In this document: positions 1 to 9,517 of the stretch, in pieces
Layout of the letters: each line of letters opens with the position of its first letter
Position numbering within the stretch: the stretch's first letter is position 1
IMG/VR virus record: IMGVR_UViG_2537562091_000001
From: a virus
Lineage: Duplodnaviria > Heunggongvirae > Uroviricota > Caudoviricetes
Reading direction: 5' to 3' (one strand)
Length of the DNA stretch: 9,517 nt
Made by a program: the position numbers and the translations under genes
The notes under the pieces: generated by a model
What the model saw: only the letters and a program-made list of their open reading frames with translations
The model's database searches: none
Told to the model about the DNA's origin: nothing

Positions 1-206
1 GTCTTCCGTAGCCTGTCATACGCGTAAAACAGCCAGCGCTGGCGCGATTTAGCCCCGACATAGCCCCACTGTTCGTCCATTTCCGCGCAGACGATGACGT
101 CACTGCCCGGCTGTATGCGCGAGGTTACCGACTGCGGCCTGAGTTTTTTAAGTGACGTAAAATCGTGTTGAGGCCAACGCCCATAATGCGGGCTGTTGCC
201 CGGCAT
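1..206 (-). CDS. insB: IS1 InsB, 5' portion only (truncated by the window boundary)
   Basis: Minus-strand frame starting at the ATG at 206-204 reads [49 protein letters not shown]..., the IS1 InsB N-terminus; it overlaps the insA 3' end as in IS1. Confidence 0.8.
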
Positions 207-400
207 CCAACGCCATTCATGGCCATATCAATGATTTTCTGGTGCGTACCGGGTTGAGAAGCGGTGTAAGTGAACTGCAGTTGCCATGTTTTACGGCAGT
301 GAGAGCAGAGATAGCGCTGATGTCCGGCGGTGCTTTTGCCGTTACGCACCACCCCGTCAGTAGCTGAACAGGAGGGACAGCTGATAGAAACAGAAGCCAC
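125..400 (-). CDS. insA: IS1 InsA (transposition inhibitor / N-terminal part of InsAB' transposase), 91 aa
   Basis: ORF translation [39 protein letters not shown]...LKNSGRSR matches IS1 InsA as recalled; it lies inside the IS1 element at the expected distance from the inverted repeat. Confidence 0.93.
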
Positions 401-735
401 TGGAGCACCTCAAAAACACCATCATACACTAAATCAGTAAGTTGGCAGCATCACCGTATTGGGGTAGTAAATGAGCTATACAATCTTAATCATTTGTTAG
501 GTGAGAACTCTTGGTCGCAGATTCAAATACTGAAAATACGTGACAAATTATTATGAGCAAAATGGTGTATGTCACGTATTTTGAATGGTAGGTTAAAAAA
601 TAACACCGACTTTCGTAGGTATTACTAATAATAAAGCAGAGTTTTTAGATAGTATCAATGTGCTTTGTGTATATTGTGGCAAATAATTGAGTTGGGGGTA
701 CAATTGTGATTGCTTTTGCATGAACATTGCGCCTT

Positions 736-752
736 TATGCATAATGAGATAA
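736..752 (+). promoter_or_regulatory. Candidate extended -10 sigma70 promoter (TGcATAAT) upstream of ybcL
   Basis: tatgcataat at 736-745 gives a TGn plus CATAAT extended -10 about 55 bp upstream of the ybcL ATG; a plausible -35 is weak. Sequence inspection only. Confidence 0.25.
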
Positions 753-798
753 AGGAATATCAAATAAAATAACGATAGGTCATAACAAAGAGGTTTTT

Positions 799-1350
799 AT
801 GAAAACACTTATCGTTTCAACTGTATTGGCATTCATAACATTTTCTGCGCAGGCTGCAGCATTTCAGGTCACTAGTAATGAAATAAAAACAGGAGAGCAA
901 CTTACAACGTCTCATGTCTTTTCTGGATTTGGGTGTGAAGGTGGTAATACATCGCCCTCATTAACCTGGTCTGGTGTTCCTGAAGGTACCAAAAGCTTTG
1001 CCGTAACTGTATATGATCCAGATGCACCTACAGGCAGTGGTTGGTGGCATTGGACTGTTGTTAATATTCCAGCAACAGTAACATATTTGCCCGTTGATGC
1101 AGGGAGACGTGATGGAACAAAACTGCCGACTGGTGCTGTTCAAGGCCGAAATGATTTTGGCTATGCTGGGTTTGGTGGCGCATGTCCTCCTAAAGGAGAT
1201 AAACCACATCATTACCAGTTTAAAGTATGGGCTCTAAAAACTGAAAAGATTCCTGTAGATTCTAACTCCAGCGGAGCGTTAGTTGGTTATATGCTTAATG
1301 CTAATAAAATCGCAACCGCTGAGATAACACCAGTTTATGAGATAAAGTAG
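799..1350 (+). CDS. ybcL: Periplasmic PEBP/RKIP-family protein (UPF0098), DLP12 YbcL-like, 183 aa
   Basis: ATG at 799 preceded by aagagg; N-terminal signal peptide MKTLIVSTVLAFITFSAQA/AAFQ; translation matches YbcL as recalled. The gene is AT-rich compared with the lambda-like genes. Confidence 0.88.
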   Translation: MKTLIVSTVLAFITFSAQAAAFQVTSNEIKTGEQLTTSHVFSGFGCEGGNTSPSLTWSGVPEGTKSFAVTVYDPDAPTGSGWWHWTVVNIPATVTYLPVDAGRRDGTKLPTGAVQGRNDFGYAGFGGACPPKGDKPHHYQFKVWALKTEKIPVDSNSSGALVGYMLNANKIATAEITPVYEIK

Positions 1351-1359
1351 GGTGAGAGT

Positions 1360-2157
1360 ATGCTGGCAAGAGGTAAGACTAACTTAAAGATCGAAGAAAT
1401 ACGGATGCATAAACATCATGAGATTCATAGGGTTAAGCCTCTTATGCCAGCTTTGTGTCGTATCCGTCAGGGAAAGAAAGTTATCAATTGGGAGACGCAT
1501 ACTTTAACTGTTGATAATAATCAAATAATATTATTTCCTTGTGGTTATGAATTTTATATTGAGAATTATCCTGAAGCAGGGCTTTATCTTGCAGAAATGC
1601 TTTACTTACCCATTGATTTAATTGAGAGTTTCCAAAAACTTTATACGGTAACTGATCAAATACGTAACAAAACAAGTTTCTTTTTACCTCAGAATCCTGA
1701 GTTAATATATTGTTGGGAGCAACTAAAAACATCTGTTTCCCGAGGCTTCTCAACTAAAATTCAGGAGCACTTAGCAATGGGCGTTCTACTTTCGTTAGGA
1801 GTGAATCATGTTAATCATTTACTTTTATCATATAGTAAACAATCATTGATAAGTCGTTGTTATAACCTGCTGCTATCCGAACCCGGCACAAAATGGACAG
1901 CAAACAAGGTTGCTCGATATCTCTACATTTCTGTTTCTACATTACATCGCCGTCTAGCAAGCGAGGGGGTAAGTTTCCAAAGTATACTGGACGATGTGAG
2001 GTTAAATAATGCGTTGTCTGCTATACAAACGACGGTAAAACCTATAAGCGAGATTGCCAGAGAAAATGGTTATAAGTGTCCTTCTCGTTTTACTGAAAGA
2101 TTTCATAATCGTTTTAATATAACACCAAGAGAGATAAGAAAAGCTTCCAGAGAGTAA
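1360..2157 (+). CDS. ybcM: AraC/XylS-family transcriptional regulator, DLP12 YbcM-like, 265 aa
   Basis: Long ORF with a C-terminal AraC-type helix-turn-helix region ([46 protein letters not shown]...[19 protein letters not shown]); it starts 10 bp after the ybcL stop and is very AT-rich. Confidence 0.85.
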
Positions 2158-2221
2158 AAGTGTTTTAAGAAGGAGCAATTCTATCGATTTTGATTTTGGG
2201 AAATCAACACGGCATAATTAT

Positions 2222-2250
2222 GTCACCGGAGCCTGAACAACTCCGGTGAC
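2222..2250 (+). terminator. Perfect 10-bp inverted repeat (gtcaccggag / ctccggtgac, 9-nt loop) between ybcM and ybcN; possible weak terminator or protein-binding site
   Basis: The stem-loop is seen directly. It lies 65 bp after the ybcM stop, but the downstream T-tract is poor (ttctg), so a terminator role is uncertain. Confidence 0.3.
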
Positions 2251-2371
2251 TTCTGCGCTAAACGGGGACGTTTATGCGCACATACAATCCAAACTCTCTT
2301 CTCCCTTCACAGATGCAGAAATGCACCTGCAATTCTTTGCATCTAGCGTTTGACCTCTGCGGAGGTGAAGC

Positions 2372-2827
2372 GTGAACCTCTCACAAGACGGCATCAAATT
2401 ACATCGCGGCAACTTCACCGCTATCGGTCGGCAGATCCAGCCTTATCTGGAGGAGGGCAAATGCTTTCGCATGGTGCTTAAACCGTGGCGTGAGAAACGC
2501 AGTCTTTCCCAGAATGCACTCAGCCACATGTGGTACAGCGAAATCAGTGAATACCTCATCAGCAGGGGTAAAACGTTCGCCACTCCAGCTTGGGTAAAAG
2601 ATGCTCTCAAACACACATATCTCGGTTATGAAACCAAAGACCTGGTTGATGTCGTAACCGGTGATATCACCACTATCCAGTCGTTACGCCATACCTCCGA
2701 CCTTGATACCGGAGAGATGTATGTCTTCCTGTGTAAGGTTGAAGCCTGGGCGATGAATATTGGCTGCCACCTGACTATTCCGCAGAGCTGCGAGTTCCAG
2801 CTGCTGCGTGATAAGCAGGAGGCGTAA
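2372..2827 (+). CDS. ybcN: Phage nin-region protein YbcN (DNA base-flipping protein family), 151 aa, GTG start
   Basis: GTG at 2372 preceded by ggagg at 2361-2365; translation [21 protein letters not shown]... matches DLP12 YbcN as recalled; it sits at the start of the nin-like block. Confidence 0.85.
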
Positions 2828-2997
2828 TGGCTACACCGCTTATTCGTGTCATGAACGGACACATCTACAAAGTACCAAATCGTCGTAAGCGTAAGCCTGA
2901 GCTGAAACCATCCGAAATACCAACACTGCTCGGATATACCGCCAGCCTGGTTGATAAAAAATGGTTGCGACTGGCAGCTAGGAGGAATCATGGCTGA
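2827..2997 (+). CDS. ninE: NinE-family protein, 56 aa
   Basis: Short [59 protein letters not shown]; its start overlaps the ybcN stop (TAATG) and its end overlaps the ybcO start. This is the expected position of ninE in DLP12; it is absent from the ORF track because it is under 60 aa. Confidence 0.75.
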   Translation: MATPLIRVMNGHIYKVPNRRKRKPELKPSEIPTLLGYTASLVDKKWLRLAARRNHG

Positions 2998-3280
2998 TTT
3001 GAGAAAAGCAGCGCGTGGTCGGGAATGCCAGGTAAGAATCCCTGGCGTATGTAATGGCAATCCTGAAACGTCTGTACTGGCACATATCCGGCTGGCTGGA
3101 TTGTGCGGTACCGGTATCAAACCGCCAGACCTGATTGCCACCATTGCATGTTCTGCCTGTCACGACGAGATCGACCGTCGCACGCATTTTGTTGACGCTG
3201 GATATGCAAAAGAATGCGCGCTGGAAGGTATGGCGAGAACGCAGGTTATCTGGCTGAAAGAGGGGGTAATTAAGGCGTGA
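2990..3280 (+). CDS. ybcO: Cys-rich DUF1364-type putative nuclease YbcO, 96 aa
   Basis: ATG at 2990 preceded by a strong AGGAGG at 2980-2985; translation [23 protein letters not shown]...CSACHDE...; the track ORF from 2951 is an upstream TTG extension. Confidence 0.85.
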
Positions 3281-3639
3281 ATACCTACAATATCACATTA
3301 CCCTGGCCGCCGAGCAATAATCGCTATTACCGCCATAATCGCGGGCGCACGCACATCAGCGCAGAGGGGCAGGCATACCGCGAAAACGTCGCCCGAATCA
3401 TTAAAAACGCAATGCTGGATATCGGCCTGGCTATGCCTGTGAAAATCCGCATTGAGTGCCACATGCCGGATCGCCGTCGCCGTGACCTGGATAATCTGCA
3501 AAAAGCCGCTTTTGACGCACTCACTAAAGCAGGTTTCTGGCTGGATGATGCTCAGGTCGTTGATTACCGCGTTGTGAAGATGCCTGTTACCAAAGGTGGG
3601 AGGCTGGAACTGACCATCACCGAAATGGGGAATGAATGA
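3277..3639 (+). CDS. rusA: RusA Holliday-junction resolvase (cryptic prophage endonuclease), 120 aa, GTG start
   Basis: Translation [24 protein letters not shown]... contains the catalytic acidic residues D70, D72 and D91 ([10 protein letters not shown]...WLDDAQ); the start overlaps the ybcO stop (GTGA). Confidence 0.92.
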
Positions 3640-3776
3640 TGTTTGAGTTTAATATGGCAGAACTTCTTCGCCACCGCTGGATGCGCCTGCGCTTATATCG
3701 TTTCCCCAGTTCTGTTTTGACCGATTACCGAATACTGAGGAATTACGCCAAAACCCTGACAGGAGCAGGAGTATGA
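3636..3776 (+). CDS. ylcG: Small nin-region protein YlcG, 46 aa
   Basis: ATG at 3636 overlaps the rusA stop (ATGA); translation [46 protein letters not shown]; same position as ylcG in DLP12. Confidence 0.7.
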
Positions 3777-3861
3777 AGTCAGAGATAACAATCAACTAAT
3801 ACTGTTTTATTGATTTTTGCTTGTAATTGGCGTTCTGGTCTGATTTTTGTGGAGTAAGTTG

Positions 3862-4245
3862 ATGCGTGATATTCAGATGGTTCTTGAGCGTTGGGGAGCG
3901 TGGGCGGCTAATAATCATGAAGATGTGACCTGGTCGTCCATTGCCGCCGGTTTTAAGGGATTAATTACTTCAAAAGTAAAATCTCGCCCGCAATGTTGTG
4001 ACGATGACGCGATGATCATTTGCGGGTGCATGGCCCGTCTGAAAAAGAACAACAGCGATTTGCACGATTTATTAGTAGATTATTATGTAGTCGGTATGAC
4101 ATTCATGTCACTGGCAGGTAAGCATTGCTGCTCTGATGGTTATATCGGGAAAAGGTTACAGAAGGCTGAGGGCATAATTGAAGGGATGTTAATGGCATTA
4201 GATATCCGGTTAGAGATGGATATCGTTGTTAATAACTCTAATTAA
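3862..4245 (+). CDS. quuD: Late-gene antiterminator Q (phage 21/82-type), DLP12 QuuD, 127 aa
   Basis: ATG at 3862 preceded by ggag at 3851-3854; translation [24 protein letters not shown]... matches QuuD as recalled; the track start at 3847 is a TTG extension. It is the last gene of the nin-like block, as Q is in lambdoid phages. Confidence 0.88.
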
Positions 4246-4261
4246 TATGCCAATTGTTTAC

Positions 4262-4297
4262 TAAAAATTATTAAAAATGGGGCGTTGAGACGCCCCC
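4262..4297 (-). terminator. Rho-independent terminator on the minus strand (stem ggggcgt/acgcccc with tgag loop at 4279-4296, then a U-rich tract from 4278 to 4262)
   Basis: Minus-strand RNA would read GGGGGCGUCUCAACGCCCC followed by AUUUUUAAUAAUUUUU, a textbook intrinsic terminator. It lies about 140 bp downstream of the nmpC stop and at the predicted 3' end of the IpeX-like RNA. Confidence 0.7.
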
Positions 4298-4434
4298 AAA
4301 AATAAAGGGTAATATATAACAGAAGGTTTATATAGTTAGAAGCAAGGTTGTGCTTCTAAAGGAAGTGGCTTGAGGGAGCCACTTATATGTTGGGGAGGCA
4401 AAGCCTCCCGCAACATATCTTTTTCGTAATCAGA
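4268..4434 (-). ncRNA. ipeX: Candidate IpeX-like small RNA in the nmpC 3' region (multi-hairpin RNA ending at the terminator above); boundaries approximate
   Basis: Four consecutive stem-loops on one strand (4385-4418, 4363-4384, 4338-4357, 4279-4297) between the nmpC stop and the terminator U-tract. IpeX is a roughly 167-nt sRNA described at this position in DLP12; ends are not mapped here. Confidence 0.4.
4385..4426 (+). terminator. Long imperfect hairpin (atatgttggggaggc-aaa-gcctcccgcaacatat) followed by cttttt; candidate plus-strand terminator just before nmpC in antisense
   Basis: About 15-bp stem with a single bulge, followed by a T5 run on the plus strand. It could terminate rightward transcription leaving quuD, or it could simply be the 5' stem of the IpeX-like RNA. 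Confidence 0.35.
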
Positions 4435-5517
4435 TTAGAACTGATACACCAGACCTACAGCGACGATGTCGTCGGTATCAATACCAGCTGTTTTGGTAAA
4501 CTTACTATCGTCAATTAAGTTGATTTTGTAATCAACAAAAGTGGACATGTTTTTATTAAAGTAGTAAGTAGCACCGACATCGACATACTTGACTAAGTCT
4601 CGGTCACCATGAACACCAAGGTCTTTACCTTTTGACTGAAGGTAAGCAACAGATGGTCGCAGACCGAAGTCAAACTGATATTGTGCTACTGCTTCAAAGT
4701 TTTGTGCTTTGTTTGCAATATGGTTATTACCAAAAACGGTCATATTCTGAGTTTCAGAATATGTGGTAGCCAGATAGATATTGTTCGCATCATATTTCAG
4801 GCCTGCAGCCCATACTTCCGCATTTTTGCCGGAGGCATTGAATTTGCTCTTACCATAGGCGACCTGACCGTCAGTGCGATCTGATTTAGCATAGGTTGCA
4901 CCCACGCCGAATCCTTCATACTCATAAGTAGTGGAGAAACCGAAACCATCACCATTGGCTTCAGTTACGTCAGTGCGGTCATTTTTACCCTGATACTGAG
5001 CAGCAAAGTTCAGGCCATCGACCAGACCAAAGAAGTCGTTGTTACGATAGGTTGCAACACCAGTGGTGCGACCAGTCATGAACACATCTGTTTGGGTCCA
5101 GGTATCGCCACCGAATTCTGGCAGAACGTCAGTCCACGCACCGATGTCGTATGCTACACCGTAGTTACGGCCGTAATCGATTGAGCCGTAGTCACCGAAT
5201 TTCAGGCCTGCAAATGCAAGACGGGTTTTGTCTTTGGAGGAACCTTGAGATTCAGCGCGGTTGCCTTTGAATTCATATTCCCACTGACCGAAACCAGTCA
5301 GTTGATCGTTGATTTGGGTTTCACCTTTGAAGCCAAGACGGGCATAAGTAGTATCACCATCATCTGCATCGTTAGAGGAAAAGTAGTGCTTGGCATTAAC
5401 TTTCCCGTACAGATCCAGCTTGTTACTGTCTTTATTATAAATTTCAGCTGCCTGAGCAGACATCGCCATCAGTACTGATGCAGCTACAGCAGAAATTGCC
5501 ACTGTTAATTTTTTCAT
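4435..5517 (-). CDS. nmpC: Outer-membrane general porin of the OmpC/PhoE/NmpC family, intact, 360 aa
   Basis: Signal peptide [29 protein letters not shown]; porin-like beta-barrel sequence ending in the C-terminal VGLVYQF with terminal Phe; uninterrupted frame on the strand opposite to the surrounding phage genes. Confidence 0.9.
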
Positions 5518-6105
5518 CGTGAGCCCTTTTTTTTGAACTATTATTAAAAAATGATGTCACTGCGCGATAAATATTCATCTAATCAATGTGATTATTTCAA
5601 GATGTAAGTTTTAGTTTCTCATTTAATTTGTGAAGTAGATCTCTATTTTTATCTGAACTTTTTCTATCGAAACCTATTTATGGCTCTTATTTGAACAAAA
5701 ATAAACCTATTAGCTAATTTATATTAATGGCTGTTATTTATGGGGGTTCTATAATTCGGTGGTTTAATTTAAATCAACTAAAAATAACGCCGGAAATTAT
5801 TTATTGGTTATTTGTTGAGGTTTTCTTATATATTTGTGGTGGTGTTTTGAACACTCGGTAGCATTCTCATAAATATCATTCAGTGGTTTACGTACGTAAA
5901 AAATTGGTTATGCTGTTAAGAGTGGTTACTTCGTCACACAGCTTAAACCCGCCGTCGAGCTGGTTTTTCCATTTTTTGAGTCTCGATATTAGCTGATAAC
6001 TCAATACCTGAGTTATTCACTGACTCCGAGTCTGTTACGTTTCTGCTTTTTTGCGATACGTTGTATTCCCTCAATTTACACCCGCTTTGTCTGCGAGGTG
6101 GGGTT

Positions 6106-6321
6106 ATGAAATCCATGGATAAGTTAACAACGGGTGTCGCCTATGGCACCTCAGCAGGTAGTGCCGGTTACTGGTTTTTACAGCTGCTCGATAAAGTCAC
6201 GCCCTCACAGTGGGCAGCAATAGGTGTGCTGGGTAGCCTGGTATTTGGCCTGCTGACGTACCTGACAAACCTTTATTTCAAGATTAAAGAAGATAAGCGC
6301 AAGGCTGCGAGAGGTGAATAA
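6106..6321 (+). CDS. essD: Phage-21-type class II holin (pinholin S21-like) with dual-start motif, 71 aa
   Basis: ATG at 6106 preceded by gaggtg at 6095-6100; translation [26 protein letters not shown]...[19 protein letters not shown] resembles S21 as recalled; Met1 and Met4 form the holin/antiholin dual start; the track start at 6061 is a TTG extension. Confidence 0.88.
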
Positions 6322-6818
6322 TGCCTCCATCATTACGAAAAGCCGTTGCTGCTGCTATTGGTGGCGGAGCAATTGCTATAGCATCAGTGTTAATCACTGG
6401 CCCAAGTGGTAACGATGGTCTGGAAGGTGTCAGCTACATACCATACAAAGATATTGTTGGTGTATGGACTGTATGTCACGGGCATACAGGAAAAGACATC
6501 ATGCTCGGTAAAACGTATACCAAAGCAGAATGCAAAGCCCTCCTGAATAAAGACCTTGCCACGGTCGCCAGACAAATTAACCCGTACATAAAAGTTGATA
6601 TACCGGAAACAACGCGCGGCGCTCTTTACTCGTTCGTTTACAACGTGGGCGCTGGCAATTTCAGAACATCGACGCTTCTTCGCAAAATAAACCAGGGCGA
6701 TATCAAAGGCGCATGTGATCAGCTACGTCGCTGGACATATGCTGGCGGTAAGCAATGGAAAGGTCTCATGACTCGTCGTGAGATTGAGCGTGAAATCTGT
6801 TTGTGGGGTCAGCAATGA
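6321..6818 (+). CDS. rrrD: SAR endolysin (T4-lysozyme-type muramidase with N-terminal signal-anchor-release domain), 165 aa
   Basis: Start overlaps the essD stop (TAATG); Gly/Ala-rich weakly hydrophobic N-terminus [20 protein letters not shown] typical of SAR domains; E35 and D44 catalytic residues present; matches R21/RrrD as recalled. Confidence 0.9.
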
Positions 6819-7276
6819 ACAGAGTAACCGCGATTATCTCCGCTCTGGTTATCTGCATCATCGTCTGCCTGTCATGGGCTGTTAATCATTACCGTGATAA
6901 CGCCATTACCTACAAAGCCCAGCGCGACAAAAATGCCAGAGAACTGAAGCTGGCGAACGCGGCAATTACTGACATGCAGATGCGCCAGCGTGATGTTGCT
7001 GCACTGGATGAAAAATACACGAAGGAGTTAGCTAATGCGAAAGCTGAAAATGATGCTCTGCGTGATGATGTTGCCGCTGGTCGTCGTCGGTTGCACATCA
7101 AAGCAGTCTGTCAGTCAGTGCGTGAAGCCACCACCGCCTCCGGCGTGGATAATGCAGCCTCCCCCCGACTGGCAGACACCGCTGAACGGGATTATTTCAC
7201 CCTCAGAGAGAGGCTGATCACTATGCAAAAACAACTGGAAGGAACCCAGAAGTATATTAATGAGCAGTGCAGATAG
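6815..7276 (+). CDS. rzpD: Spanin inner-membrane subunit Rz (i-spanin), 153 aa
   Basis: ATG at 6815 overlaps the rrrD stop (ATGA); N-terminal transmembrane helix [18 protein letters not shown] followed by a coiled-coil-like region; nearly identical to lambda Rz as recalled. Confidence 0.9.
7035..7217 (+). CDS. rzoD: Spanin outer-membrane lipoprotein subunit Rz1 (o-spanin), embedded in the +1 frame of Rz, 60 aa
   Basis: ATG at 7035 preceded by aaggag at 7022-7027; lipobox VVGC followed by a Pro-rich mature region ([16 protein letters not shown]); lies entirely within rzpD, as Rz1 does within Rz in lambda. Confidence 0.88.
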
Positions 7277-7280
7277 AGCT

Positions 7281-7296
7281 GCCCATATCGATGGGC
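7281..7296. terminator. Short GC-rich hairpin (gcccat-atcg-atgggc) between the convergent rzpD and borD genes; possible weak bidirectional terminator
   Basis: 6-bp stem seen between the two stop codons at 7276 and 7308; no clear U-tract on either strand. Confidence 0.25.
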
Positions 7297-7307
7297 AACT
7301 CATGCAA

Positions 7308-7601
7308 TTATTGTGAGCAATACACACGCGCTTCCAGCGGAGTATAAATGCCTAAAGTAATAAAACCGAGCAATCCATTTACGAATGTTTGCTGGGTTTC
7401 TGTTTTAACAACATTTTCTGCGCCGCCACAAATTTTGGCTGCATCAACAGTTTTCTCCTGTCCAATTCCCGAAACGAAGAAGTGATGGGTGATGGTTTCC
7501 TTTGGTGTTACTGCTGTCGGTTTGTTTCCAACAGTAAACGTCTGTTGAGCACATCCTGTAATAAGCATTGCCAGAGCGGCAGAAAACAACATTTTTTTCA
7601 T
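7308..7601 (-). CDS. borD: Bor-family outer-membrane lipoprotein (serum-resistance protein homologue), 97 aa
   Basis: Start at the ATG giving MKKMLFSAALAMLITGCAQQ... (lipobox ITGC); near-identical to lambda Bor as recalled; the track ORF from 7649 is an N-terminal extension. Confidence 0.88.
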   Translation of the reverse strand: MKKMLFSAALAMLITGCAQQTFTVGNKPTAVTPKETITHHFFVSGIGQEKTVDAAKICGGAENVVKTETQQTFVNGLLGFITLGIYTPLEARVYCSQ

Positions 7602-7960
7602 CTTATTATCCTGCATTGTTAAAAACGGCAGAATCCTATGTGACAACAATTAAACGATAGTTAAATGGATTGATGAAAATTAAAACTATATAGGTGGATG
7701 CTCAGCCTATTGGAGGAGGGGGGCACTCAGAATCCTGTGGAATGAAATAAACCGCTCTTTCTGTCCATTACCCTTTTAGCTGCGCTGTATCGTCGCCGTA
7801 TTCCCGCATTAACCATGACCGTAGCCCGACGGGGAATTCCTTCTGCGTGAGTGTGCGGGAATAATCAAAAACGATGCACACCGGGTTTTACTGTGCTGAC
7901 AGACGCAGGGTTACCCTCATAGTCGCTTTTCCGGTGCGATGGTGGAAGAAACCGGGATGT

Positions 7961-8155
7961 TTATTCATCATCACTCTGGATTGATGTATATGCTCTCTTT
8001 TCTGACGTTAGTCTCCGACGGCAGGCTTCAATGACCCAGGCTGAGAAATTCCCAGACCCTTTTTGCTCAAGAGCGATGTTAATTTGTTCAATCATTTGGT
8101 TAGGAAAGCGGATGTTGCGGGTTGTTGTTCTGCGGGTTCTGTTCTTAGTTGACAT
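7961..8155 (-). CDS. ylcI: Small 64-aa protein with a predicted ribbon-helix-helix-like DNA-binding pattern; by position the ylcI (DUF3950) equivalent
   Basis: ORF MSTKNRTRRTTTRNIRFPNQMIEQINIALEQKGSGNFSAWVIEACRRRL...; a basic N-terminus, then a beta-strand-like RNIRFP followed by two helices, resembles Arc/CopG-type folds (inference). It sits between bor and cos, as ylcI does in DLP12. Confidence 0.55.
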   Translation of the reverse strand: MSTKNRTRRTTTRNIRFPNQMIEQINIALEQKGSGNFSAWVIEACRRRLTSEKRAYTSIQSDDE

Positions 8156-8319
8156 GAGGTTGCCCCGTATTCAGTGTCGCTGATTTGTATTGTCTGAAGT
8201 TGTTTTTACGTTAAGTTGATGCAGATCAATTAATACGATACCTGCGTCATAATTGATTATTTGACGTGGTTTGATGGCGTAGATGCACGTTGTGACATGT
8301 AGATGATAATTATTATCAT

Positions 8320-8543
8320 TTTGCGGGTCCTTTCCGGCGATCCGACAGGTTACGGGGCGGCGACCTCGCGGGTTTTCGCTATTTATGAAAATTTTCCGGT
8401 TTAAGGCATTTCCGTTCTTCTTCGTCGTAACTTAATGTTTTTATTTAAAATACCCCCTGAAAAGAAAGGAAACGACAGGTGCTGAAAACGAGCTTTTGGG
8501 CCTCTGTCGTTTCCTTTCTCTGTTTTTGGCCGTGGAATGAACA
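8320..8543. other. Lambda-type cos site: cosQ/nick region, cosN 12-nt cohesive-end sequence gggcggcgacct at 8355-8366, and cosB (terminase/IHF binding region) extending to the nohD start
   Basis: Sequence around 8321-8540 matches the joined right and left ends of lambda as recalled (tccgacaggttacg | gggcggcgacct | cgcgggttttcgctatttatgaaaattttccgg...), with a few substitutions; the Nu1-like ORF starts about 190 bp downstream, as in lambda. Confidence 0.85.
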
Positions 8544-9095
8544 ATGGAAGTCAACAAAAAGCAGCTGGCTGACATTTTCGGTGCGAGTATCCGTACCATT
8601 CAGAACTGGCAGGAACAGGGAATGCCCGTTCTGCGAGGCGGTGGCAAGGGTAATGAGGTGCTTTATGACTCTGCCGCCGTTATAAGATGGTATGCCGAAA
8701 GGGATGCTGAAATTGAGAACGAAAAGCTGCGCCGGGAAGTTGAAGAACTGCGGCAGGCCAGCGAGACAGATCTCCAGCCAGGGACTATTGAGTACGAACG
8801 CCATCGACTTACGCGTGCGCAGGCCGACGCACAGGAGCTGAAAAATGCCAGAGACTCCGCTGAAGTGGTGGAAACCGCATTCTGTACTTTCGTGCTGTCG
8901 CGGATCGCAGGTGAAATTGCCAGTATTCTCGACGGGATCCCCCTGTCGGTGCAGCGGCGTTTTCCGGAACTGGAAAACCGACATGTTGATTTCCTGAAAC
9001 GGGATATCATCAAAGCCATGAACAAAGCAGCCGCGCTGGATGAACTGATACCGGGGTTATGGGCGTTGGCCTCAACACGATTTTACGTCACTTAA
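8544..9095 (+). CDS. nohD: Terminase small subunit Nu1 homologue, C-terminally truncated: Nu1-like residues 1 to about 171, then 11 codons and a stop read from IS1 DNA (fusion ORF of 183 aa)
   Basis: Translation [46 protein letters not shown]... follows lambda Nu1 (winged-helix N-terminus) up to ...[10 protein letters not shown], then diverges into [11 protein letters not shown] encoded by IS1 sequence; no terminase large-subunit gene follows. Confidence 0.85.
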
Positions 9096-9517
9096 AAAAC
9101 TCAGGCCGCAGTCGGTAACCTCGCGCATACAGCCGGGCAGTGACGTCATCGTCTGCGCGGAAATGGACGAACAGTGGGGCTATGTCGGGGCTAAATCGCG
9201 CCAGCGCTGGCTGTTTTACGCGTATGACAGGCTACGGAAGACGGTTGTTGCGCACGTATTCGGTGAACGCACGATGGCGACGCTGGGGCGTCTTATGAGC
9301 CTGCTGTCACCCTTTGACGTGGTGATATGGATGACGGATGGCTGGCCGCTGTATGAATCCCGCCTGAAGGGAAAGCTGCACGTAATCAGCAAGCGATATA
9401 CGCAGCGAATTGAGCGGCAGTAACCTGAATCTGAGGCAGCACCTGGCACGGCTGGGACGGAAGTCGCTGTCGTTCTCAAAATCGGTGGAGCTGCATGACA
9501 AAGTCATCGGGCATTAT
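9059..9517 (+). mobile_element. IS1 fragment lacking its left end (IS1 coordinates about 283 to 743), joined directly to nohD; runs to the window end
   Basis: From 9059 the sequence matches internal IS1 (atgggcgttggcctcaacacgattttacgtcacttaaaaaactcaggccgc...), with no terminal inverted repeat at the junction; positions 9059 to about 9243 are the reverse complement of positions about 186 to 1. Confidence 0.9.
9061..9423 (+). pseudogene. insB: IS1 insB remnant: lacks the insA-insB 5' region and carries an apparent +1 frameshift near 9420 relative to canonical InsB
   Basis: InsB frame reads [17 protein letters not shown]...[10 protein letters not shown] then stops at 9421-9423, while the canonical InsB C-terminus [31 protein letters not shown] continues in the next frame (ggcagtaacc here versus ggcataacc as recalled). 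Confidence 0.6.

Follow-up and report, generated by a model that had tools for sequence, protein, structure and literature searches.

When two IS1 sequences in opposite orientation stand at the two ends of a prophage segment, the question arises whether the DNA between them has been inverted, mobilised or trimmed. The stretch of DNA analysed here, hereafter the window (9,517 nt), is such a case, and the initial annotation had proposed that the roughly 8.6-kb block between the IS1 copies may have been inverted or trimmed relative to the ancestral prophage. In our view the window is very probably a contig of a draft E. coli genome that carries the middle part (ybcL to nohD) of a DLP12-like prophage, eroded by separate deletions and not inverted.

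The window corresponds exactly to one contig, at positions 1458-10974 of the locus L003 on scaffold GL872249.1 (draft assembly GCA_000191015.1), and runs of 192 N on the left and 548 N on the right border it. It starts and stops inside IS1 because the assembly was unable to read through the repeat; no read spans either IS1 in the assembly, and each copy is a reconstruction from a pair of contig ends whose IS1 coordinates overlap (111 nt for the left copy, 390 nt for the right one). A repeat search of the window returned inverted arms of 186 nt at 1-186 and 9057-9242, 100% complementary and both made of IS1, the left one ending where the window starts, which makes further extension impossible. 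Both the repeat and the IS1 coordinates confirm that two inverted IS1 sequences bracket the ybcL-nohD block, as had been annotated; the right arm had been placed 1-2 nt off, at 9059-9243. This perfect repeat is nt 270-455 of the element, the stretch of IS1 that the two contig ends happen to share. The features of the window are collected in Table 1.

Table 1. Features of the window, with positions counted from its first nucleotide
Feature	Position	Strand	Description
Left IS1	1..455	-	element nt 455->1; IRL, insA, A6C frameshift motif at 143-149
insA of left IS1	125..400	-	91 aa, intact; Pfam Zn_ribbon_InsA 1.3e-21, HTH_Tnp_IS1 4.7e-31
IRL terminus of left IS1	433..455	-	GGTGATGCTGCCAACTTACTGAT; prophage junction 455/456
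DLP12-like cryptic prophage block	456..9056	+	ybcL, ybcM, ylcH, ybcN, ninE, ybcO, rusA, ylcG, quuD, nmpC-type porin (-), essD, rrrD, rzpD, bor/iss (-), ylcI (-), cos, nohD'
cosN	8355-8366		GGGCGGCGACCT
nohD'::IS1 fusion ORF	8544..9095	+	183 aa; Nu1 residues 1-172, 11 IS1-encoded residues, stop; Phage_Nu1 2.5e-101
TT microhomology at deletion junction	9057..9058	+	common to nohD and IS1 nt 270-271
Right IS1 remnant	9057..9517	+	element nt 270-729; without IRL, promoter region and first ~70% of insA
insB' ORF of right remnant	9163-9423		DDE_Tnp_IS1 3.8e-49
Extra G in insB'	9420	+	causes premature stop

The block shares synteny and high identity with the DLP12 genes and holds the cos and nohD (Nu1) module. 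It differs from strain TUM17668 by one mismatch in 8,603 nt and is 99.4-99.95% identical to REL606 and 91-99% identical to K-12. GC skew of the window is uninformative at this scale. As scaffolded, the genes of the block have the order and strand of K-12 MG1655, REL606 and TUM17668, with ren/emrE on the left and cusS-cusR-cusC on the right; DLP12 itself (at argU in K-12, and also in E. coli B, REL606/BL21) shows the same succession from ren/emrE to nohD with cusSRC beyond. Compared with DLP12, IS1 stands here in place of the emrE 3' end, ylcJ and ybcK, and ybcV-ybcW are missing. The nmpC-type porin gene is intact, whereas nmpC has IS5 inside it in K-12 and IS1 with a 9-bp duplication in REL606. 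Past nohD codon 172, the aaaD, tfaD, appY, ompT, envY, ybcH and nfrAB genes of K-12 give way to the IS1 remnant and an RHS/AHH-PAAR-VgrG island. The strain is without emrE and ybcK and, at the prophage locus, also without appY-ompT-envY-nfrAB.

The left copy is apparently a full 768-bp IS1, a length obtained from two contig ends that overlap at nt 345-455 with the 192-N scaffold gap between them. Both terminal inverted repeats are present, the IRL in the window and the IRR in the neighbouring contig (L003 841-857, adjoining emrE), which holds the remainder of the element, nt 345-768. With the zinc ribbon and HTH of InsA, the A6C -1 frameshift motif and the DDE domain of insB', this copy appears to encode a transposase. 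Its nt 1-455 are those of the TUM17668 IS1 except for 127C and 262A, and its insB' part in the neighbouring contig departs from the same element by two single-base indels at the contig end. The IRL and its flank of 33.5% G+C agree with the earlier description of a normal IS1 end at 455 abutting AT-rich prophage DNA. The junction with the prophage lies 121 nt beyond the ybcK stop of relatives (in REL606 and TUM17668, ybcK ends at locus position 5879 and the flank begins at 6001), and on the IRR side the element is joined to emrE codon 45. The flanks map to REL606 3901 and 6001, so that 2,099 bp are missing. No 9-bp target duplication was found at the left IS1, whose flanks read CCCCAATAC and ACCAGAATG; as controls, the simple insertions in nmpC of REL606 (GGTTTCGGT) and in the autotransporter gene of TUM17668 (CACTGATTC) carry perfect 9-bp duplications. 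The absence of a duplication follows from the 2,099-bp deletion and is not evidence against the IS1 identity of the copy. The endpoint of the loss is the IS terminus, the IS is kept and the adjacent DNA is gone; taken together, the missing 2,099 bp and the lack of a duplication fit what would be expected of an IS1 adjacent deletion, in which either terminus may mark the original insertion site.

The left junction is absent from 5,426 complete E. coli genomes and, by exact-pattern scan, from the genome_contigs and metagenome_contigs collections, and the emrE'/IRR and IRR/flank junctions are likewise absent from the complete genomes. A match in strain c1-17 was rejected as a separate IS1 event (ylcJ-IS1-envY), and apparent 95% matches in complete E. 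coli genomes were discarded as pieces joined across other IS1 copies.

Judged by its sequence, the right copy is a dead remnant and not an active element. Homology to IS1 begins at nt 270 (window 9057), with the IRL and most of insA gone, while homology to nohD runs up to window 9058, which bears out the truncation at the nohD junction reported in the initial annotation. As reconstructed, the remnant comprises 499 bp (IS1 nt 270-768), its nt 340-768 and IRR lying in the next contig across the 548-N gap, and the overlapping contig ends are identical but for one probable error. Within the window the remnant equals nt 270-729 of the TUM17668 IS1 apart from one inserted base. This extra G is missing in the overlapping neighbour contig of the same assembly, in L007, a different sample with the same junction, and in the IS1 copies of REL606 and TUM17668; we rejected it as a real inactivating mutation and regard it as a probable sequencing error at the contig end.

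The BLAST alignment with TUM17668 locates the right junction: L003 up to 10515 aligns with TUM17668 up to 14603, and L003 from 10514 onwards with TUM17668 from 15753 (IS1 nt 270), with an overlap of 2 nt. At this site TUM17668 carries nohD in full, a terL pseudogene of 876 bp and an intact IS1, the single one between terL' and the RHS/AHH island. Relative to this arrangement, 1,151 bp are deleted in L003, comprising the nohD 3' end, the terminase fragment and IS1 nt 1-269. The native nohD protein ends in LSEYIEQSG; the fusion protein that replaces it (WP_000453613.1) has exact matches in six contigs from several samples, and the junction is common to several genomes and read sets. The right junction of the window was found in none of the 5,426 complete E. 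coli genomes and by exact-pattern scan in neither genome_contigs nor metagenome_contigs. No target duplication was seen in the available flanks of the right copy. The IRR flank of this copy differs from that of TUM17668, L003 keeping 677 bp more, so that to regard both as the same insertion assumes a further adjacent deletion in TUM17668.

The relation between the two copies is best seen in L004 (GCA_004570285.1), which matches L003 1913-10590 with one mismatch. This genome has the identical nohD'-IS1 junction and fusion ORF, ylcJ and an intact ybcK, and no left IS1. Since the right junction occurs there without the left IS1, neither event depended on the other, and truncation of the right copy probably preceded the arrival of the left one. 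It has some appeal to see in the two copies a parent and its daughter, produced in a duplicative inversion by intramolecular replicative transposition of one IS1, given their inverted orientation, their 100% identity over the comparable 186 nt and, within this stretch, a 60-nt insB allele that just 61 of 9,172 matching records carry exactly. This reading is contradicted by the L004 arrangement, and it seems to us hardly credible: a remnant without IRL, promoter region and insA start cannot transpose and therefore cannot be the parent of the other copy, nt 127 and 262 differ (127C/262A in the left copy, 127T/262T in the intact TUM17668 counterpart of the right one), no inverted 9-bp target repeats are found at the available flanks of the two copies, and the segment between them, in its scaffold orientation, is collinear with every reference. 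The allele itself, with its DRLRK(TVV) codons at window positions 1-~20 (at the left edge) and 9219-9245, lies within the repeat at the contig ends and is thus not diagnostic; its presence in a further, unlinked IS1 of TUM17668 shows it to be a mark of the IS1 population resident in the lineage rather than of a parent-daughter pair. The initial annotation was therefore right that both copies share the same insB variant, but the common source it read into this, in the sense that one copy derives from the other, finds no support in view of the unlinked copy, L004, the dead remnant and nt 127/262. It had also expected unrelated copies to be recognised by a reference-like orientation of the block and by target duplications of their own; independence and orientation are both found, and duplications are found at neither copy because each junction is a deletion endpoint.

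The orientation of the block deserves a closer reading, since all four contig ends lie inside the shared IS1 segment (nt 270-768) and on sequence grounds alone the contig could just as well lie the other way round; the collinear orientation comes from the scaffolding. The left neighbour contig (IS1 768->345) fits the right end of the window as well as the left, and inversions mediated by IS elements are well documented for E. coli (PMC4173774), so that the block might be truly inverted, or might flip by homologous recombination across the 499-bp inverted IS1 homology, while the scaffold displays a reference-like orientation. We nevertheless hold this to be very unlikely: the deposited scaffold is collinear with K-12, REL606 and TUM17668, the unequal gap sizes (192 versus 548 N) suggest that they may be read-pair estimates, and no data point to a flipped isomer. 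Run against the K-12 and B-lineage DLP12 as had been proposed, the comparison of synteny thus returned the reference orientation (per scaffold) and gave no support to an inverted block, whereas the suspected trimming is evident, the left junction having cost 2,099 bp and the right one 1,151 bp, after an older loss from terL to the attR side. Because the scaffold gaps are positive where the IS1 reconstruction implies overlaps, extra IS1-bounded DNA is possible in the gaps, the right one especially. Each gap may contain more than what one IS1 lacks; a second complete IS1 on the right, for instance, would mean that the nohD remnant and the IS1 end next to the RHS/AHH flank come from two separate copies. 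The right gap of 548 N stands against a 390-nt overlap under a single remnant, with two IS1 copies at least 378 nt would be missing, which is closer to 548, and the right IRR flank is unlike that of TUM17668. On the other hand, TUM17668 has one IS1 between terL' and the same RHS/AHH island, the overlapping contig ends agree save for the one probable error, and gap estimates across repeats are unreliable; we consider hidden DNA rather unlikely, and were it there, the detail would change and the conclusion of independent deletions would stay.

Bounded as it is by inverted IS1 homology of 499 bp and by intact IRR ends that both face outward, the 8.6-kb block could also be thought of as an invertible or transposable cassette, which appears highly improbable; if it were one, it might, in cell populations, flip by recombination or be mobilised by the left transposase, carrying along the nmpC-type porin, bor/iss, rusA and the lysis cassette. 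IS1 composite transposons with inverted copies, such as Tn1681, are known, and here as in them two IS1 flank a passenger and the outer termini are intact, both being IRR, with a left copy that appears to encode a transposase. Yet it is scarcely conceivable that the IS1, the 8.6-kb block and the remnant form such a transposon, able to mobilise nmpC, bor/iss, rusA and the lysis genes through its two outward IRR ends: one copy is dead, no 9-bp duplication surrounds the unit (ACCAGAATG/CATTCTGGT versus CAATGCATT), the passenger lies in its ancestral prophage context with syntenic flanks on both sides, and no second location was found, the left junction occurring nowhere else in the complete genomes, genome_contigs or metagenome_contigs.

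Accumulated deletions being the preferred reading, the following order of events can be proposed. To judge from relatives, an IS1-associated deletion would first have joined the truncated terL (876 bp) to the RHS/AHH-PAAR-VgrG island by cusS, with loss of the late genes, attR and the appY-ompT-nfrAB region of K-12, a state that TUM17668 would have kept on the IRL side. As the comparison with TUM17668 shows, 1,151 bp were then lost in an illegitimate deletion of the ordinary type at the TT microhomology, which removed the last 9 nohD codons, the terL fragment and IS1 nt 1-269, leaving the transposition-dead remnant of 499 bp (nt 270-768) and the nohD'-IS1 fusion ORF. Later, and solely in the line leading to this genome, a complete IS1 from another site in the genome would have inserted into the emrE-ybcK interval, facing the other way, and an IS1 adjacent deletion would have taken 2,099 bp (emrE from codon 46 onwards, ylcJ, ybcK and 121 nt), leaving both IS1 termini on non-contiguous DNA without a 9-bp duplication. 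Recombination between two direct IS1 copies would have the same outcome and is indistinguishable from an adjacent deletion at the left copy.

IS1/Tn9 is the classic case of adjacent deletions, which arise by intramolecular target-primed transposition. IS1 is among the elements documented to give such deletions, which start precisely at the element terminus (PMC9330008); by this definition the left copy is alike, with intact termini on non-contiguous DNA, no duplication and 2,099 bp lost. The same kind is met in this prophage in c1-17 (ylcJ-IS1-envY) and in TUM17668 (terL'-IS1-AHH). The right junction is of another kind, with a 2-bp microhomology and a breakpoint within IS1 (nt 269/270). Of the 12 populations of the Lenski long-term evolution experiment (LTEE), 10 lost the DLP12-like locus, and one IS1-associated deletion, 547,701-555,877, begins where the REL606 nmpC::IS1 ends (PMC4173774). 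Recurrent IS1-associated deletions of a DLP12-like remnant are thus common to both settings; those of the LTEE arose in the laboratory, in E. coli B and from nmpC::IS1, whereas the present ones are natural, at other sites and in a different lineage.

For the reading of draft genomes, the window carries a caution: an unresolved IS yields inverted repeats at the ends of contigs, and these are not to be taken as evidence of inversion. Among all collections searched the left junction is private to this genome, while the nohD'-IS1 fusion (WP_000453613.1) serves as a lineage marker in a few genomes. The decay of a prophage by deletions at IS1 copies is of an ordinary, already known kind and, with little significance beyond bookkeeping, this locus adds a well-resolved example of the stepwise decay of a DLP12-like prophage by IS1 and illegitimate deletion.

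Both ends of the window lie in IS1. A repeat search of the window retrieved an inverted repeat of 186 nt, window 1-186 against 9057-9242, which is 100% complementary over a spacer of 8,870 nt; a perfect match of this length is far beyond chance, and both arms are IS1. The initial annotation had placed the arms 1-2 nt off, but the repeat is present, and the bracketing of the block by two inverted IS1 is right in the window sequence. It is worth stressing that the window is a single contig of a draft assembly. It is found exactly at 1458-10974 of L003 (scaffold GL872249.1 of GCA_000191015.1), bordered by runs of 192 N (L003 1266-1457) and 548 N (L003 10975-11522), and its ends fall in IS1 because the assembler was unable to cross the repeat. 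The left neighbour contig carries a truncated emrE followed by IS1 nt 768->345, and the right neighbour runs from IS1 nt 340->768 into unique DNA; in IS1 coordinates they overlap the window ends by 111 nt and 390 nt, respectively. The overlaps are identical save for two single-base indels at the left contig end and a single inserted G at window 9420, which gives GGCAGTAAC instead of GGCATAAC and introduces a stop codon into insB'. This G is probably a contig-end error, since the overlapping contig from this assembly lacks it, as do another sample with the same right junction (L007) and reference IS1 copies.

Features of the window (IRL, IS1 terminus; empty cells, no entry)
Feature	Window position	Strand	Detail
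Left IS1 part	1-455	-	IS1 nt 455->1
insA of left IS1	125-400	-	intact
IRL terminus of left IS1	433-455	-	
nmpC-type porin gene	4435-5517	-	intact, 360 aa; Porin_1 1.9e-151
cosN	8355-8366		GGGCGGCGACCT
I2	8463-8488 / 8494-8519		26-nt imperfect inverted repeat
Right IS1 part	9057-9517	+	IS1 nt 270-729

When rebuilt from the window end and the neighbour contig, the left copy appears to be a complete IS1 of 768 bp. Its IRR terminus adjoins emrE after codon 45, while its IRL adjoins DNA situated 121 nt past the ybcK stop in REL606 and TUM17668; the G+C content at window 401-800, next to this terminus, is 33.5%, i.e., AT-rich. In REL606 one flank ends at 3901 and the other starts at 6001, that is 2,099 bp apart, and therefore ylcJ, ybcK, and emrE beyond codon 45 were lost. 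A script comparing IS1 flanks found no 9-bp target duplication around the left copy. The same script returned perfect 9-bp duplications for two control simple insertions (REL606 nmpC::IS1 and TUM17668 autotransporter::IS1) and none for two deletion-associated elements (terL'-IS1-AHH in TUM17668 and ylcJ-IS1-envY in E. coli c1-17). IS1 adjacent deletions start precisely at the element terminus (PMC9330008). Judged by sequence, the left-copy junctions carry the signature of such an adjacent deletion, a signature that recombination between two direct IS1 copies would give as well. The left junction was absent from 5,426 complete E. coli genomes and from collections of genome and metagenome contigs. 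A separate IS1 event, also devoid of target duplication, is seen in c1-17 (NZ_CP189959.1; positions 12531-13835 of locus L009), where IS1 links ylcJ straight to the envY side and ybcK through ompT are deleted.

The right junction is of another nature. Window 456-9058 differs from TUM17668 by one base, and TUM17668 has nohD in full there, along with a terminase-large-subunit pseudogene of 876 bp and an IS1 that is intact and oriented the same way, beyond which come an AHH/RHS-PAAR-DcrB-VgrG island and then cusS. Against this arrangement, 1,151 bp are gone from the window, a span that opens at nohD codon 173, takes in the terL fragment, and closes at IS1 nt 269; the TT at window 9057-9058 fits either side of the deletion junction (nohD or IS1). 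The trimming at IS1 junctions proposed in the initial annotation is thereby borne out, with 2,099 bp gone on the left and 1,151 bp on the right. As one deletion endpoint lies within the IS, the right junction is not a transposase product but an ordinary illegitimate deletion. The remnant has no IRL, promoter region, or most of insA, and therefore transposition is impossible. Translation of the junction ORF yields a Nu1/NohD protein in which 11 IS1-encoded residues stand in for the final 9, and an exact-sequence lookup found this fusion protein in six contigs, one of them scaffold GL872249.1, and under the accessions WP_000453613.1/EGB58839.1/TFW03426.1/MFL7287451.1. Its carriers include GCA_000191015.1, GCA_004570285.1, the genome of MFL7287451.1, SRR32288625, and ERR9669118. 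On the IRR side, L003 retains 677 bp (L003 11952-12628) missing in TUM17668 at L002 16252; this stretch holds the 3' end of the AHH toxin gene along with a 177-aa gene that may be an immunity gene. We infer that the L003 and TUM17668 lineages are each ancestral on one side of what would be the same original IS1, because the window lost 1,151 bp and TUM17668 lost 677 bp. The predicted common ancestor of the two states would carry terL'|IS1 on one side and IS1|177-aa gene on the other. Within the RHS gene, another 615 bp (L003 13016-13630) are kept in L003 and missing in TUM17668. In REL606, nohD homology ends at the equivalent of window 9052 (L001 15375; the window junction is at 9056-9058), and there a J-like tail-tip pseudogene is joined to nohD. 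This point is separated from the window's IS1 junction by only 4-6 bp, so that two independent rearrangement endpoints nearly coincide at the nohD 3' end.

The question arises as to how the two events relate. A contig of GCA_004570285.1 (L004) aligns to L003 1913-10590 with one mismatch and encodes the same fusion ORF; it has ylcJ and ybcK without the left IS1, and therefore the right junction occurs without the left copy. In the simplest order, the right junction would have formed first and the left IS1 would have come later from another of the genomic IS1 copies, which number about 30 in such genomes (31-35 matching places in TUM17668). The initial annotation had instead proposed a common source for the two copies from their common insB allele, which is uncommon at the nucleotide level, its 60-mer being found without mismatch in 61 out of 9,172 matching records. 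The same allele is carried by an unlinked IS1 of TUM17668 (L008) and therefore characterises the IS1 population of the lineage, not the pair. Moreover, the left copy has 127C/262A versus 127T/262T in the intact IS1 of TUM17668 that corresponds to the right copy. These two points add to the L004 evidence against a parent-daughter relation, and a common source is left unsupported.

Inversion of the block, likewise suggested at the outset, fares no better. In the scaffold, all aligned segments (ren/emrE, ybcL-quuD, nmpC-bor, ylcI-nohD, cusSRC) keep the strand and order of K-12 MG1655, REL606, and TUM17668, and the inverted target repeats expected of duplicative inversion were not found at the flanks; duplicative inversion was rejected on both counts. 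All four contig ends lie within shared IS1 nt 270-768, therefore a flipped contig is equally compatible with the sequence and the collinear orientation depends on scaffolding. The positive scaffold gaps (192 and 548 N) conflict with the inferred contig overlaps; either the deposited sizes look wrong or extra IS1-bounded DNA is hidden in a gap, the right one especially. A composite transposon was rejected given the absence of flanking duplication, the ancestral context, and the lack of any other location in the collections searched. The sole non-trivial reading remaining, flipping or mobilisation of the block, appears highly improbable.

Other features of the prophage deserve mention. The nmpC-type gene is intact in the window, whereas K-12 has IS5 inside it and REL606 an IS1 flanked by a perfect duplication of 9 bp (GGTTTCGGT). 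Window ~4510-7655 is ~91% identical to K-12 versus 98-99% for adjacent segments, which suggests a mosaic prophage. Unlike K-12 DLP12, the window has no counterpart of ybcV and ybcW (~1.28 kb) at ~7656-7943, between bor/iss and ylcI, where ~290 bp of unrelated sequence replaces them; REL606 and TUM17668 share this replacement. Upstream of nohD, a lambda-type cos region is kept, and we take the I2 repeat (window 8463-8519) to correspond to the R2/R1 Nu1-binding sites of lambda cosB; the large terminase subunit gene is missing, therefore the cos site is unusable in cis.

Altogether, the region is a DLP12-like cryptic prophage in IS1-associated decay, an ordinary case of a known kind. Natural cases include distinct IS1 events in the DLP12-like prophage of c1-17, TUM17668, and REL606, and in the laboratory 10 of 12 LTEE populations lost the DLP12-like locus, with IS1-mediated deletions (PMC4173774).
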